A stretch of 64,000 nt of DNA from Lysobacter sp. CFH 32150 (GCF_022758295.1 NZ_JALDWJ010000007.1:148940-212939), one strand, 5' to 3'; counted from the first letter of the stretch, positions 4,350-42,459 are shown. Notes: generated from the sequence alone by a model not told the origin. Translations and numbers: made by a program.

Positions 4350-5669
4350 ATGTTCGCTTATTACCTCGATCTCGCCCTGCGCAGCTTCCGCCGCAACAAG
4401 GTGCTGACCGCGCTGATGGTGCTGGCGATCGCGCTCGGCATCGGCGCCAGCATGACCACGCTCACGGTGTTCCATGTCCTGTCCGGGGATCCATTGCCGG
4501 GCAAGAGCAGCACGCTGTTCTACCCGCAGATGGACCCGACGAGCATGGATGGCTACGTTGCGGGCGAAGAACCCGACAGCCAACTCACCCGCTTCGATGC
4601 CGAAACCTTGTTGCGCCAGGCGCGGGGCGATCGCCAGGCGTTGATGACGGGCGGTGGCGTGGGCGTGCAACCGCAGAAGCAGGGGCTGTCGCCGTTCGCG
4701 ATCGAGGCGCGCTACACCTCCGCCGATTTCTTCCCGATGTTCGATGCACCGTTCCTCCATGGCAACGGCTGGAGCAAGACCGAGGACGAACGTCGCGATC
4801 GCGTCGCCGTCATCACCAAGCCGCTCAACGACAAGTTGTTCGACGGCGGCAACAGTGTCGGCAAGTCCGTGCGACTCGACGGGACCGACTTCCGCATCGT
4901 CGGTGTCGTCGCCGACTGGCGGCCGACGCCGAAGTTCTACGACCTCAATTCTGATCGCTACGGCGAGGTCGAACAGGTTTTTCTGCCCTTCTCCACCTCG
5001 CGCGACCTCAAGATGGGGCGTAACGGCAGCATGAACTGCTGGGACGCCGGCGACGACGCCGAAGACGATCCCGAAGGCGAAACCGGCGTCAACGCGCCCT
5101 GCACCTGGATGCAGTACTGGGTGCAACTCGACACGCCGGAAAAAGCCGAGGCCTACAAGAAGTACCTCACCAACTATTCCGACCAGCAGCGTGCGAGCGG
5201 CCGCTTCCAGCGTCCGACCAACGTGCGCCTGCGCAACCTGATGGAATGGCTGGACTTCAACGAGGTCGTGCCGAGCGACGTACGCCTGCAGGTGTGGCTG
5301 GCGTTCGGGTTCCTGCTGGTCTGCCTGCTCAACACCGTCGGCCTGCTGTTGGCGAAATTCATGCGGCGCAGCGGCGAAATCGGCGTACGTCGCGCGCTCG
5401 GGGCGTCCCGGCGCTCGATCTTCGCCCAGTGCCTGATCGAAGCGGGCACCGTCGGCCTCGTCGGCGGCATCCTCGGGCTCGGACTCGCAGCGCTCGGCCT
5501 ATGGGCGGTGCGTCAGCAACCCGCCAGCTATGCCGATCTTGCGCAACTCGACCCGGTGATGCTGTTGACCACGTTCGTGCTTGCCGTGGCTGCAAGCGTG
5601 CTGGCCGGGCTCGTGCCCGCCTGGCATGCCTGCCAGGTCACGCCCGCCATCCAGCTCAAGAGCCAGTGA
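4350..5669 (+). CDS. ABC transporter permease, FtsX/MacB-type, with an N-terminal TM, a large periplasmic domain and a C-terminal four-TM FtsX core.
   Basis: 439 aa. The topology is read from hydrophobic segments, and the motif GVRRALGASRRSIFAQ is typical of FtsX-family permeases. Confidence 0.85.
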   Translation: MFAYYLDLALRSFRRNKVLTALMVLAIALGIGASMTTLTVFHVLSGDPLPGKSSTLFYPQMDPTSMDGYVAGEEPDSQLTRFDAETLLRQARGDRQALMTGGGVGVQPQKQGLSPFAIEARYTSADFFPMFDAPFLHGNGWSKTEDERRDRVAVITKPLNDKLFDGGNSVGKSVRLDGTDFRIVGVVADWRPTPKFYDLNSDRYGEVEQVFLPFSTSRDLKMGRNGSMNCWDAGDDAEDDPEGETGVNAPCTWMQYWVQLDTPEKAEAYKKYLTNYSDQQRASGRFQRPTNVRLRNLMEWLDFNEVVPSDVRLQVWLAFGFLLVCLLNTVGLLLAKFMRRSGEIGVRRALGASRRSIFAQCLIEAGTVGLVGGILGLGLAALGLWAVRQQPASYADLAQLDPVMLLTTFVLAVAASVLAGLVPAWHACQVTPAIQLKSQ

Positions 5670-6931: not shown

Positions 6932-8287
6932 ATGCCGACGATCCTGGTCATTGATGACAACCCCGCGGTTGCGACCGCACTGGAAACCCTGTTCTCGTTG
7001 CAGGCATTGACCACGCTGGCGGCATCGACGCCGCAGCGTGGGCTGGCCCTGCTCGAACGCGAACAGGTCGATCTCGTCGTGCAGGACATGAACTTCCAGG
7101 CCGACACCACGTCGGGCGAGGAAGGCGTGGCGCTGTTCGGCGAGATCCGCGCGCGCTTTCCGGACCTGCCCGTCGTACTGCTGACTGCATGGACGCACCT
7201 GGAAAGCGCGGTCGACCTGGTCAAGGCCGGCGCCGCCGATTACCTCGCCAAACCGTGGGACGACCGCAAGCTGCTGGCGACGGTCAACAACCTGCTGGAA
7301 CTGTCGGAGACGCGGCGCGAACTCGCACAGGTGCGCGCAGGCGAGCGCCGACGCCGCGACGAGCTCGCACGCGACTTCGACCTGCGCGGCTACGTGTTTG
7401 CCGACGCCGCGAGCGAACGCGTGCTGTCGCTGGCGTGCCGGGTCGCGCGCTCGGAACTGCCGGTGCTGATCACCGGCCCGAACGGCGCGGGCAAGGAGAA
7501 GATCGCCGAGATCGTGCACGCCAATTCGACGGTCAAGGATGGCCCGTTCGTCGCGCTCAACTGCGGTGCACTGCCGGGGGAGTTGATCGAGGCCGAGTTG
7601 TTCGGCAGCGAGGCCGGCGCGTACACGGGCGCCCAGCGCGCGCGCGAAGGCAAGTTCGAAGCGGCCGATGGCGGCACCCTGTTCCTCGACGAGATCGGCA
7701 CGTTGCCGCTGGCCGGACAGGTCAAGCTGCTGCGCGTGCTCGAAACCGGCCGCTTCCAGCGTCTTGGCAGCAACAAGGAACGCCAGGTCAGCGTGCGTGT
7801 GCTCAGCGCCACCAATGCCGACCTGCCCGCGCTGATCCGTGCAGGACACTTCCGCGAAGACCTGTTCTATCGCCTCAATGCGATCGAACTGCAGTTGCCG
7901 CCGCTCGCCGAACGCCGCGACGACATCCTGCCGCTGGCACGGCATTTCCTGCCCACGGGCAAACGCCTGACGGAAGATGCCGAGCGTGCGCTGCTGGCAC
8001 ATCGCTGGTCCGGCAACGTGCGTGAGTTGCGCAACGTGGTGCAGCGCGCTGCACTGCTTGCACGCGATGCGACGATCACCGCCGAAGCGCTCGGTTTGCC
8101 GACATCGACGCCGACCAATGGAAACCACGTCGTGTTCGACGAACCGGACCGCGTTGCGATCGAGGCTGCATTGCAACGTAATGGTGGCGTACTGGCACAA
8201 GCCGCGAGCGACCTCGGCCTGTCGCGGCAAGCGCTATACCGCCGATTGGAGCGCCTGGGCATCAAGCGCGACGAAGGCCGGGACTAG
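6932..8287 (+). CDS. Sigma-54-dependent response regulator, with REC, AAA+ enhancer-binding and Fis-type HTH domains (NtrC family).
   Basis: REC aspartate context (DLVVQDMNF), Walker A GPNGAGKE, a GAYTGA variant of GAFTGA, and a C-terminal HTH ([15 protein letters not shown]). Confidence 0.9.
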
Positions 8288-8551
8288 GGCCTGTTAACAC
8301 TTATGGAGCATGCCGCGTTGTTTCCCAACGGTCGTCAGGTGGTGTTGCACCGCGCAGCGCCTTGCCGCCTGCAAGGTCAAGCGGTGCGGCGCCGCATGGC
8401 GGCCGTTGGGAAACAACCCAAAGGGCCGGGCCTGAAGCCGCGCGGTGCCGCGTCATCGCTCGGTTGCGTATCGACATACGCGCCCTCACTCTTCCTTGCC
8501 CCGCGCGGCTTCAGGCCCGGCGCGGCATGCTCCATAAGTGTTAACAGGCCC
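8288..8551. mobile_element. MITE-like element copy 1, 264 bp, with 31-bp perfect terminal inverted repeats GGGCCTGTTAACACTTATGGAGCATGCCGCG and flanked by TAG on both sides.
   Basis: The TIRs and a nested internal long hairpin were read directly. It is homologous to the elements at 40390-40655 and 41011-41136, in inverted orientation. Confidence 0.6.
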
Positions 8552-8556
8552 TAGCA

Positions 8557-30818: not shown

Positions 30819-30890
30819 GCGACGGTAGCTCAGAGGTTAGAGCAACGACTTCGAGTCGTGTGTCGCCGGTTCGAATCCGGCACGTCACCA
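30819..30890 (+). tRNA. tRNA-like element 1. The D arm (TAGCTCAGAGGTTAGAGCA) and T arm (GCCGGTTCGAATCCGGC) are canonical, but the acceptor stem has two mismatches and the anticodon region is 2 nt too short. Possible tRNA pseudogene; isotype undetermined.
   Basis: Hand folding: the acceptor GCGACGG / ACGTCAC pairs at 5 of 7. The anticodon arm has either a 5-nt loop or a 3-nt variable loop. Confidence 0.35.
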
Positions 30891-30962
30891 CTGGATAGCT
30901 CAGTCGGTTAGAGCATCGGACTTGATTCCGAGAGTCGCGGGTTCGATTCCCGCTCCAAACCA
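30889..30962 (+). tRNA. tRNA-like element 2. Canonical D arm (TAGCTCAGTCGGTTAGAGCA) and T arm (GCGGGTTCGATTCCCGC). The anticodon stem TCGGA/TCCGA encloses a 6-nt loop, and the acceptor pairs at 4 of 7. Possible tRNA pseudogene or fragment.
   Basis: Hand folding. The 3' arm resembles tRNA-Asp/Lys-type T arms. Confidence 0.35.
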
Positions 30963-40351: not shown

Positions 40352-40374
40352 TCGCGCTATCGAGGCTTCGCATC

Positions 40375-40669
40375 CGCAACGCCGCACCAGGGCCTGTTAA
40401 CGCTATCCGAGCAGGTCGCGCCGGGCCTGACGGCGTGCGAGGCAAGGAAGAGCGAGGGCGCGTATGTCGATACGCAACCGAGTGATGACGCGGCATCGCG
40501 CGTCCTCAGGCCCGGCCCTCCGGGTTGCTCCTCAGTGGCCGCCAGCCGGCGCCGCGCGCCTTGTCCTTGCAGCAAGCAAGGCGCTGCGGCACGCAACACC
40601 ACCTGGCAGCCACTGAGGAGCAACGCGACCTGCTCGGATAGCGTTAACAGGCCCTGGTGCGGCGTTGCG
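40375..40669. mobile_element. MITE-like element copy 2. The core (40390-40655) is bounded by GGGCCTGTTAACGCTATCCGAGCAGGTCGCG TIRs, extended to 46-bp inverted repeats.
   Basis: TIRs read directly. The internal region is about 80% identical to copy 1 (inverted) and includes a long hairpin with compensatory changes. Confidence 0.6.
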
Positions 40670-40744
40670 TCGCTAACACCGGCTTTATGAAATCGCAACA
40701 TCGTTGGCGTCACCATGCTCGCGAACCCACCCTGGAGCAAAGCG

Positions 40745-41011
40745 ATGCGAGCACTCTTCGTCGGCGGCATGGTGGACAACAGCGAACTGGATCTCGACGC
40801 AGCCCAGCCGCCTGCGCATTACCCCGAAAACACTGGCGCCGGCCGGCCGCGCTACCGGCTGCACCACATCGGTGAACACAATAGCGATGGCGAGATCGCC
40901 TACGTGGTCTATGCCGCACCGGAGCTGGCCGATTACGAGGTCGAGCGCATTGCCAGCGAGCGCGGCTATCCGCGCCGTTTTGACGCCACCCCCGCGCTCG
41001 TGACCAGCTAG
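40745..41011 (+). CDS. Hypothetical protein (about 88 aa) lying between two MITE copies. Its TAG stop is the first three bases of MITE copy 3.
   Basis: ORF with GC3 bias; MRALFVGGMVDNSELDL.... No homologue recognised. Confidence 0.35.
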   Translation: MRALFVGGMVDNSELDLDAAQPPAHYPENTGAGRPRYRLHHIGEHNSDGEIAYVVYAAPELADYEVERIASERGYPRRFDATPALVTS

Positions 41012-41136
41012 GGCCTGTTCACGCTATCCGAGCAGGTCGCGCCGGGCCTGAGGCCGTGCGAGGCAAGGAAGAGCGAGGGCGCGTATGCCGATACGCAACC
41101 GAGCGATGACGCGGCATCACGCGGCATCAGGCCCTA
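41011..41136. mobile_element. MITE-like element copy 3 (truncated). It has the left TIR GGGCCTGTTCACGCTATCCGAGCAGGTCGCG, about 90 bp of internal core, and a short right end caggcccTA.
   Basis: It aligns to copy 2 with an internal deletion between caggccc microhomologies. Its right-end TA(G) is the stop codon of the minus-strand PQQ dehydrogenase gene. Confidence 0.5.
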
Positions 41137-42459
41137 CTTCGGCGCAATGCGCCAGATGACGTCGCCGACATCGTCGGCGACCAGCAGCGCGCCATCCTTG
41201 CCGACCGCAACACCGACCGGGCGCCCGCGTGCGTTGCCGGACGTGTCGAGAAAATCGGTCAGCACGTCTTCGATGTCGCCGGCCGGACGGCCATCCGCGA
41301 ACGGCACGAACACTACCTTGTAGCCAGCCGGCGGATCGCGATTCCACGAACCATGCAAGCCAACCAAGGCGCCATTCGCATAACGCGAGGGCAACAGCTT
41401 GCCGGTGTAGAACGTCAGGCCCAGCGGCGCGACATGCGAGCCCAGCGCGTAGTCGGGCGGGATCGCTTTCGCCACCAGATCGGGCCGCGGTGGCTGCACG
41501 CGGCTATCCACATGTTGGCCGTAATAGCTGTAAGGCCAACCATAGAACGCGCCTTCGCGTACTGAAGTCAGGTAATCGGGCACCAGGTCGCTGCCGAGTT
41601 CGTCGCGCTCGTTGACCACCGCCCACAACACCCCGCTCTGCGGTTGCCAGGCGATGCCGACCGGATTACGCAAACCGGAGGCGAACAAACGCCGGCTGCC
41701 GGTCGCCGCATCGATTTCGAGGATCGCAGCGCGATCGGTTTCGATCTCCATGCCGTGTTCGGCGACGTTGCTGTTGGAGCCGACACCGACGTACAACTTC
41801 GAGCCGTCCTTGCTCGCGACCAGGCTTTTAGTCCAGTGATGGTTGCGCGGTAGACCCGGCAGATCGGTGACCTTGGTCGGCGCAGCGGTGATCTGCTTGT
41901 CGCCGCTGCGGTACGGAAAGCGCACCACTGCATCGGCATTGGCGACATAGAACGTCTCGCCGACCAGTGCCATGCCGAACGGCGACATCAGGTTCTGCAG
42001 GAACACGCTGCGGGTCTCGGCGACGCCATCGCCATCGGTATCGCGCAGCAGCGTGATGCGATTGGGGCTGGACATGGAGGCGCCGGCCTTCGCGAAGGCC
42101 CTGTTCACGAACCACCTGCGCAACACGCCCAGTGGCGGATCTTCGGTGGGCGGCCGATTGGTTTCCGCCACCAGCACGTCGCCGTTGGGTAGCACGTACA
42201 CCCAACGCGGATGCACGAGGTCGCGTGCATAGGCGTTGACCGCAAGCCCTGCAGCCGGTGTCGGCATTGCGCCGGCAGGCCAACCGACCGCTGTAGCGAT
42301 CTTGACCGTGGGGATCAGTGTCTTGGTCGGCGCTGGCAGCATCGGATGCGGTCCGGTGCCGGCCTTCGTCGACAAGCGCGCGGTCTCGCCGCAACCGACT
42401 ATGCCGATCAGCAATAACGCGAAGGTGTGACGCGCATGGGGATGGACGATGCTGTTCAT
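41134..42459 (-). CDS. PQQ-dependent soluble sugar (aldose) dehydrogenase, YliI/Asd beta-propeller family, lipoprotein-type signal.
   Basis: 441 aa with an N-terminal [10 protein letters not shown] lipobox and a beta-propeller repeat pattern. Confidence 0.75.

Follow-up and report, generated by a model that had tools for sequence, protein, structure and literature searches.

Correia elements (CREE/NEMIS) of Neisseria are non-autonomous, TA-duplicating MITEs of the Betaproteobacteria with stable hairpins; they exist as long and as short variants, and their insertions lie beside genes or between them. They are the closest functional counterpart of the family described here, which has each of these properties and whose short forms are 147-bp one-hairpin derivatives. 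In Neisseria, transcripts that contain these folded MITEs are processed by RNase III (PMC10969869). The two families also have the short internal motifs GGCGTTGC, CGCCTTG and CAAGGCG in common, but Correia elements have another terminal repeat, are 105–156 bp long and are confined to one genus. To our knowledge, no cognate IS or transposase has been assigned to Correia elements, whereas the family described here has an evident one.

The enterobacterial ERIC/IRU and YPAL-type elements also insert at TA. Like the present family they are small, fold into hairpins and lie in transcribed intergenic regions in either orientation, but their sequences are unrelated, they form single hairpins of ~127–170 bp and their taxonomic range is narrow. 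TIMEs, which derive from Tn3 (PMC4133298), are non-autonomous elements of ~250 bp that have only the terminal repeats in common with their partner and are mobilised in trans, as we propose below for our family. They differ in their Tn3-family 38-bp ends and 5-bp duplications, and we know of no report of deep covariation in an internal fold of TIMEs. Among autonomous elements, the IS427 group (IS1248 and ISPaes1-type elements of Paracoccus; PMC3281130) agrees with our family in the terminal 15–24 bp, the TA duplication, the YTAR target and the taxa in which it is found. These IS are 806–865 bp long, whereas the MITE is ~265 bp long, lacks a transposase and has an interior without detectable similarity to them. 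An IS of this group is the presumed source of the transposase that moves the MITE.

Here we analysed a 64,000-nt stretch of DNA from Lysobacter sp. CFH 32150 (the window) that holds three copies of this family. The response regulator encoded beside copy 1 shows 100% identity to the protein of this strain. The family is real and widespread, and we found no published name for it. Literature searches with the terminal sequence matched only unrelated primers and returned no publication that contains the terminus, and searches on structured MITEs, on MITEs resembling Correia elements, and on those of Polaromonas or of the IS5 type in Xanthomonas gave no description of the family. The genome paper of Polaromonas JS666 reportedly mentions a MITE. 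Taken as a whole, it is highly probable that this is a folded MITE family moved in trans by an IS427-group transposase, with its pairing kept by selection in the lineages that propagate. The result is a MITE family that extends across several phyla, with an identified partner IS and documented empty sites. At present, annotators leave such 265-bp blocks unlabelled or call spurious small ORFs over them.

Three copies in the Lysobacter window

The window contains two full-length copies of 265 bp each, in opposite orientations, and one half-copy, in line with the three-copy, MITE-like family proposed in the initial annotation. The terminal sequence GGGCCTGTTAAC occurs five times with at most one mismatch, against 0.11 matches expected; the five matches are both ends of copies 1 and 2, plus a left end at 41011. 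Copy 1 lies at 8287–8551 on the plus strand, which we take as the reference orientation, and is matched over its full length by nhmmer with 108 bits. It therefore begins one base before the 8288 first given, but the perfect 31-bp terminal repeat ascribed to it was correct. This inverted repeat is 31 nt long within the element and 34 nt long with the CTA/TAG flanks included, and two long hairpins lie inside it.

Copy 2 (265 bp; 40390–40654, minus strand) belongs to a different subfamily. Its identity to copy 1 is 80.8%, and it was rightly described as about 80% identical and inverted. Copy 3 (41011–41134, minus strand) is a 124-bp half-element with one terminus and the P3 hairpin (model positions 140–266). 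It is 94% identical to the corresponding half of copy 2 and falls in the same subfamily, and the window copies represent at least two subfamilies. The boundary of copy 3 is an internal CAGGCCC that repeats the terminal CAGGCCC, as expected from its earlier description as a partial element bounded by this motif; the observed product would result either from a deletion between the two CAGGCCC repeats or from transposition with the internal site serving as a pseudo-end. A 28-nt core is common to all three copies and is present nowhere else in the window, and the family profile found no further copies there.

ORFs of 83 aa (8303–8554) and 140 aa (40357–40779) cross copies 1 and 2, respectively. 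These are composition artefacts of a genome with 65% G+C, because other family members do not keep the frame: each of the reading frames is open in at most 25% of the copies, and the 83-aa ORF across copy 1 does not persist as a frame. They are nonetheless liable to be annotated as 'hypothetical protein'. The only Rfam matches in the window are two adjacent tRNA genes (30819–30957).

A widespread family with a YTAR target

We scanned one genome per species for two 12-nt termini spaced 226–256 nt apart. Elements of 254–274 bp with GGGCCTGTTMAC termini were found in at least 119 genome stretches from well over a hundred bacterial species. The matches listed include Beta-, Gamma-, Zeta- and Alphaproteobacteria and Acidobacteriota, and single MAGs with the element are labelled Bacteroidetes, Chitinophaga and Longimicrobiales. 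These stretches (at least 119) and the window provided 123 full copies of 254–274 nt (median 266), which form the set for the alignment and the counts below; IMG/VR contigs contain four more. Clearly, then, the window copies are not the sole members of the family, nor is the element ordinary conserved DNA: among the loci compared, we found neither shared flanking DNA nor retention at orthologous loci across species. No neighbouring gene is shared between loci, and clustering of flanking ORFs gave only common paralogous families and no transposase.

The perfect run of the inverted repeat has a median of 23 nt in the 123 copies. Of 122 copies, 105 have TA as their left flank, 98 have it as their right flank and 88 have it at both ends. 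The target reconstructed from these 88 reads YTAR in 85/88 cases and CTAG in 44/88. Copies within one genome are up to 99.6% identical in some genomes and only 64–86% identical in others, which indicates that several subfamilies coexist and that some of them moved recently. Derivatives of 147 bp retain both termini and a single long hairpin, either P2 with P1 (L009, 3739–3885) or P3 with P1 (L064, 6999–7145). One further element (L052, 955–1218) has both termini around a rearranged interior, which the profile matches in four pieces on both strands. A blastn search of plasmids with copy 1 gave no match, and one with an Acidovorax copy gave a single, unannotated match in Variovorax.

Insertion sites, empty sites and gene context

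Copy 1 sits inside a regulator–kinase operon. Its left duplicated TA (8285–8286), together with the first G of the element, forms the TAG stop codon of an NtrC-type response-regulator gene (6932–8287), and its right duplicated TA (8552–8553) lies 2 nt before the ATG (8556) of a sensor kinase gene. Five metagenomic relatives (L133–L137), whose regulator is 87–95% identical, have the corresponding empty site, and their regulator and kinase genes abut or overlap. The junction reads GGGACTAATGCGC in L135 and GGGACTGAGCACGTGCGC in L133, compared with GGGAC-TA-(265 bp)-TA-GCATGCGC in the window.

Copy 3 occupies the stop-codon TA of a conserved small gene (40715–41011), where the small gene and the 3′ end of a convergent gene for a PQQ-dependent sugar dehydrogenase (41134–42459, minus strand) overlap. 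The TA at 41009–41010 and the first G of the element make the TAG stop of the small gene, which ends with TAG or TAA at the same place in relatives. At the other end, the TA at 41135–41136 and the last C of the element (41134) make a minus-strand TAG stop for the dehydrogenase gene, whose product has 441 aa, compared with 444 and 447 aa in the closest relatives. Its last codons were replaced by the insertion, which also provided the new TAG stop. Copies 2 and 3 are missing from two relatives (L186 and L187), which have empty sites at both positions. The empty sites of relatives hold a single TA or the matching stop codon. Clean empty sites at all three positions demonstrate insertion with duplication of TA, and all three copies were inserted after the split from relatives with 91–95% identical flanking proteins.

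The TA or TAG flanks first attributed to every copy are present around copies 1 and 3, but copy 2 is flanked by CA and TG and has no TA direct repeat. Outside this copy, the left arm of a host hairpin (GCAACGCCGCAC) and the altered flank CA together occupy 40376–40389, and the altered flank TG and the right arm (GTGCGGCGTTGC) occupy 40655–40668. The host hairpin (GCAACGCCGC..GCGGCGTTGC) is present without the MITE in L187, where it reads GCGCAACGCCGCCTCAGTGCGGCGTTGCG. Copy 2 landed in the loop of this pre-existing hairpin, and the host arms add 14 bp to give an apparent 46-bp inverted repeat, which had been mistaken for an extended repeat of the element. Palindromic flanks are seen at copy 2 only (1/123 copies), and we rejected a preference for palindromic targets on this count.

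The host hairpin of copy 2 carries GCAACGCC/GGCGTTGC, which the internal loops of the MITE family also conserve. The rest of the window shows no enrichment of this motif (4 matches, 1.4 expected), and the overlap between host hairpin and MITE loops may be coincidence. A REP-like family with the GCAACGCCGC motif was likewise rejected for want of enrichment in the window. At the junctions of copy 2 (40388–40392 and 40652–40656), CTAGG is replaced by CCAGG and CCTAG by CCTGG. The same T-to-C change is the commonest departure from TA in the whole family (CA on the left seven times, TG on the right twelve times) and is what very-short-patch-type repair at CTWGG/CCWGG would be expected to produce.

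Both ends of the element read TA+G. When a TAA or TAG stop codon is hit at its TA, a TAG stop is restored, and insertions at gene ends and inside operons are therefore tolerated. Insertion at the TA of YTAR, combined with these TA+G ends, explains how the element can sit on stop codons and in operons without destroying genes. With a crude gene caller, 109 genes were found to have their 3′ end towards an element, and 47 of these ends are a TA+G stop. The same crude calls place 63 of the 106 classified elements between co-directional genes, 39 in sense and 24 in antisense orientation to their neighbours, which is not a significant bias. In L089, a MITE copy (4838–5103) is preceded, at a distance of 70 nt, by a TPP riboswitch (4668–4767, 71 bits), and the copy apparently separates this riboswitch from the gene under its control.

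A conserved three-way junction

Copy 1 is predicted to fold as a three-way junction with −214 kcal/mol as RNA (z = −19.8) and −122 kcal/mol as DNA (z = −16.4). The two ends of the element form P1, from which two long hairpins, P2 and P3, emerge on either side of a central CCC-GNA-GGG mini-hairpin. On the plus strand, the 5′ arm of P1 (helix 1) spans 8287–8317; its first 16–18 nt (GGGCCTGTTAACACTTAT) are the transposase-type terminal inverted repeat found in the IS as well, and covariation sets in beyond them. P2 (8318–8416; helices 2–4) has double changes at all of its pairs, and its internal loop is CAAGGCG/GCAACGC in most family members and a variant of this in the Lysobacter copies. The mini-hairpin at the junction (8417–8425; helix 5) reads CCC-AAA-GGG in copy 1, is paired in 99.5% of cases and has the nearly invariant family consensus CAACCC-GNA-GGG. 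P3 (8426–8520; helices 6–8) ends in the apical hairpin GCGTATCGACATACGC and mirrors P2 with motifs of the CGTTGC/GCCTTG type. The 3′ arm of P1 (8521–8551) is the right terminal inverted repeat.

RNAalifold returned the same architecture for the 123-sequence alignment. In these copies, standard pairs fill 92.3% of cells, against 64.9% in shuffles and 35–45% with slid partners, and the covariation score is 0.650, against 0.168 in shuffles and at most 0.126 with slid partners. Both sides have changed at 63 of the 76 pairs, and one-sided states of the G-U type are few beside these double changes. The only pairs that never vary belong to the first 12 positions of P1, where they comprise its outer nine pairs and two more, and they correspond to the transposase-type repeat. 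The initial annotation had noted compensating substitutions between the hairpin arms of copies 1 and 2 and had proposed that structure rather than sequence is preserved. The substitutions are real and hold across the 123 copies, and the strong covariation across phyla supports the proposal.

Several unpaired motifs are conserved as well: GCGTTG follows P1, P2 contains CAAGGCG and GCAAC, the centre has CAACCC-GNA-GGG, and P3 contains CGTTG and GCCTTG, the last two being the reverse complement of the P2 motifs. The family profile matches every copy over its full length in both orientations, which identifies the element as a quasi-palindrome of two halves of ~130 bp. The loop of the central mini-hairpin (alignment columns 156–163) is GAA in most copies and the reverse complement, TTC, in several (L002, L006, L013 and L020 among them), as if the piece enclosed by the stem arms had been flipped.

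Pairs of copies within one genome differ in a way that depends on their age. Young pairs show single changes that often break a base pair, and old pairs show mostly compensated doubles (11 doubles and one single in L049; 16 doubles and three singles in L005/L108). This pattern indicates that pairing is maintained in the lineages that propagate while individual insertions decay. The conservation of the fold is unusually deep and also strand-symmetric. Folding energy differs between the two strands by a mean of −0.3 kcal/mol (p = 0.43), and in the 63 co-directional contexts the transcribed and non-transcribed strands differ by −0.19 kcal/mol (p = 0.98), with 301 and 293 G-U pairs, respectively.

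What the fold may be for

The interior of the element is not derived from the IS, yet its complex fold has been kept through hundreds of compensated, strand-symmetric changes. The basic model of mobilisation does not account for this, since a DDE transposase acting on double-stranded ends has no obvious need of internal hairpins. The lack of strand asymmetry, the rarity of G-U states, the absence of orientation bias and the lack of a conserved frame, promoter, terminator or Rfam match all argue against a gene for an RNA of one strand, which is the less likely interpretation. Most likely, the fold acts at the DNA level or in either orientation, and we infer that it matters strand-symmetrically for propagation or for tolerance. 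Extrusion as a cruciform or single strand would bring the ends of this very short element together for synapsis. Alternatively, compactness of the transcript in either orientation would make insertions harmless.

A more specific proposal, which we put forward tentatively, is that propagation of the element depends on the three-way junction as a functional nucleic-acid structure, for example because the extruded cruciform or single-stranded form is the substrate of the IS427-group transposase or of a host factor. In that form, P1 would hold the ends together, and the internal loops and the CCC-GNA-GGG hairpin would serve as recognition points. If this were so, a DDE enzyme would carry out structure-dependent transposition, and Correia-type elements would gain both a model and a candidate enzyme class. 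A requirement of the fold for transposition would likewise make the family an accessible system for studying structure-dependent recognition by an IS5-family transposase.

The strand symmetry and the scarcity of one-sided, G-U type states would also be expected if the covariation were a mutational by-product, with one arm serving as template for the other during intrastrand template switching or hairpin-templated repair. The GAA and TTC states of the central loop are what flips of a palindrome should leave, and the flanks of copy 2 show matched changes (CA for TA at the left end, TG for TA at the right) although they lie outside the transposed unit. These flank changes may instead be explained by a repair bias at CTAGG/CCTAG, however, and young copies bear pair-breaking changes that have gone uncorrected. 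Furthermore, the positions and lengths of the helices, the three-way architecture and the unpaired motifs are conserved across phyla, which repair alone would not achieve. We therefore regard a purely mutational origin of the covariation as unlikely.

A role as a structured non-coding RNA that is mobile only incidentally, whether as a module for mRNA processing or stabilisation or as an insulator of coupling, is somewhat harder still to sustain. The extreme stability of the predicted RNA fold (−214 kcal/mol, z = −19.8) would suit such a role, as would the 63 of 106 classified copies between co-directional genes and the place of copy 1 inside the regulator–kinase operon, and RNase III processing of Correia-containing transcripts in Neisseria is a precedent (PMC10969869). 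Against this, the transcribed strand has no folding advantage, the orientation bias is not significant (39 vs 24) and no copy is retained at orthologous loci. Rfam 15 gave no covariance-model match to the element in the window at the gathering threshold and no credible one at the E-value threshold, nor any in 18 other copy-bearing loci, and no promoter or terminator was found in the element. Selection on a fold that serves propagation or tolerance on either strand is accordingly the reading that we retain.

Relationship to Correia elements

A distant kinship with Correia elements (CREE/NEMIS), either as a member of that family or through one ancestral TA-duplicating MITE, appears improbable. 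Both families duplicate TA, have TTAAC at positions 8–12 of the terminus, occur in Betaproteobacteria and include long forms and short forms with one hairpin. There is also a local match of GCGGCTTCGT-CGCCTTGTCCTG to GCGGCGTCGTCCGCCTTGCCCTG, a 21/23 motif, and the mean local score of 20.3 marginally exceeds the 17.0 ± 0.6 of shuffles. However, one of 60 shuffles reached the observed mean, and the maximum of 29 lies within the null range, which extends to 30. The profile of our family gives no match to nine real Correia copies, and its termini differ from the 26-bp Correia repeat (TATAGTGGATTAA...) at 6 of the first 12 positions. At the level of sequence, membership in the Correia family is not supported.

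An IS427-group partner with the same ends

The initial annotation had called for a search for an IS with matching terminal repeats, and this search succeeded. Viral contigs were scanned for TA followed by the terminus, and pairs of inverted termini were then inspected. Besides the MITE, these contigs contain recurrent pairs of inverted termini 808–817 bp apart. Overall, the elements so delimited are 806–824 bp long, have GGGC[C/G]TGTT[A/C]AC ends and an inverted repeat of ~18 bp, are flanked by yTA...TAr and encode two overlapping ORFs (orfA and orfB) in different frames. The fused orfA/orfB product scores 227–241 bits against the NCBIfam model of IS5 family transposases (NF033580; cut-off 110) and contains the Pfam domains DUF4096 and DDE_Tnp_1.

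By tblastn, plasmids of Polaromonas JS666, Burkholderia, Cupriavidus, Variovorax, Pseudomonas and Paracoccus encode proteins with 66–80% identity to this product that carry the annotation IS5 family transposase. The four plasmid copies inspected (Polaromonas, Burkholderia, Pseudomonas and Paracoccus) measure 811–824 bp and have MITE-type ends with yTA...TAr flanks. The partner IS was also found in MAGs of Lysobacteraceae (812 bp), Lysobacter (823 bp) and Terracidiphilus (806 bp). The taxa named for transposase homologues with at least 75% identity are Xanthomonas, Hydrogenophaga, Variovorax, Burkholderia, Dyella, Lysobacter and Acidobacteriota, and the MITE has this taxonomic range as well. 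Elements of the IS427 group are ~0.8–0.87 kb long, with an inverted repeat of 13–21 bp, a 2-bp direct repeat and frameshifted ORFs (PMC3281130, Table 2). In size, inverted repeat, 2-bp duplication and frameshifted ORFs the partner matches this group, which places it in the IS427 group of the IS5 family.

The outer 16–18 bp of each MITE end (GGGCCTGTTMACRCTA) are the terminal inverted repeat of the partner IS. By nhmmer, the sequence match between MITE and IS is limited to the terminal 15–24 nt (model positions 1–24 and 240–266), which on the IS are positions 1–24 and the last ~25. A simple internal-deletion derivative of the IS was rejected as an origin, the ~215-bp interior of the MITE being unrelated to it. 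The initial annotation had noted no transposase in the window, and indeed none of the IS5/IS427 type lies there. Because an IS427-group element or transposase is absent both from the 64-kb window and from the 119 loci, we infer from the matching ends that the DDE transposase of an IS427-group IS mobilises the MITE in trans.

The origin had first been sought among Tc1/IS630-like or IS5-like elements, and the second suggestion held: the partner belongs, by its termini and TA/YTAR flanks, with the IS5 family. IS630-family elements target CTAG and duplicate TA. The TA duplication and CTAG preference of the MITE would fit an IS630/Tc1 origin, but this can be set aside with near certainty, since every autonomous element recovered with these ends is ~0.81–0.82 kb long and encodes an IS5-family transposase (NF033580; DUF4096 and DDE_Tnp_1), and no IS630-family element of ~1.1–1.2 kb was found with these termini.

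One IS427-group copy (L140, 2254–3286) is 1033 bp long rather than 815 bp. It holds a 219-bp insertion with inverted ends CCTGATTAGCCCTGACC...GGTCAGGGCTAATCAG and a 9-bp direct repeat, TTAAACTAT; this insertion is another small MITE, nested in the IS.
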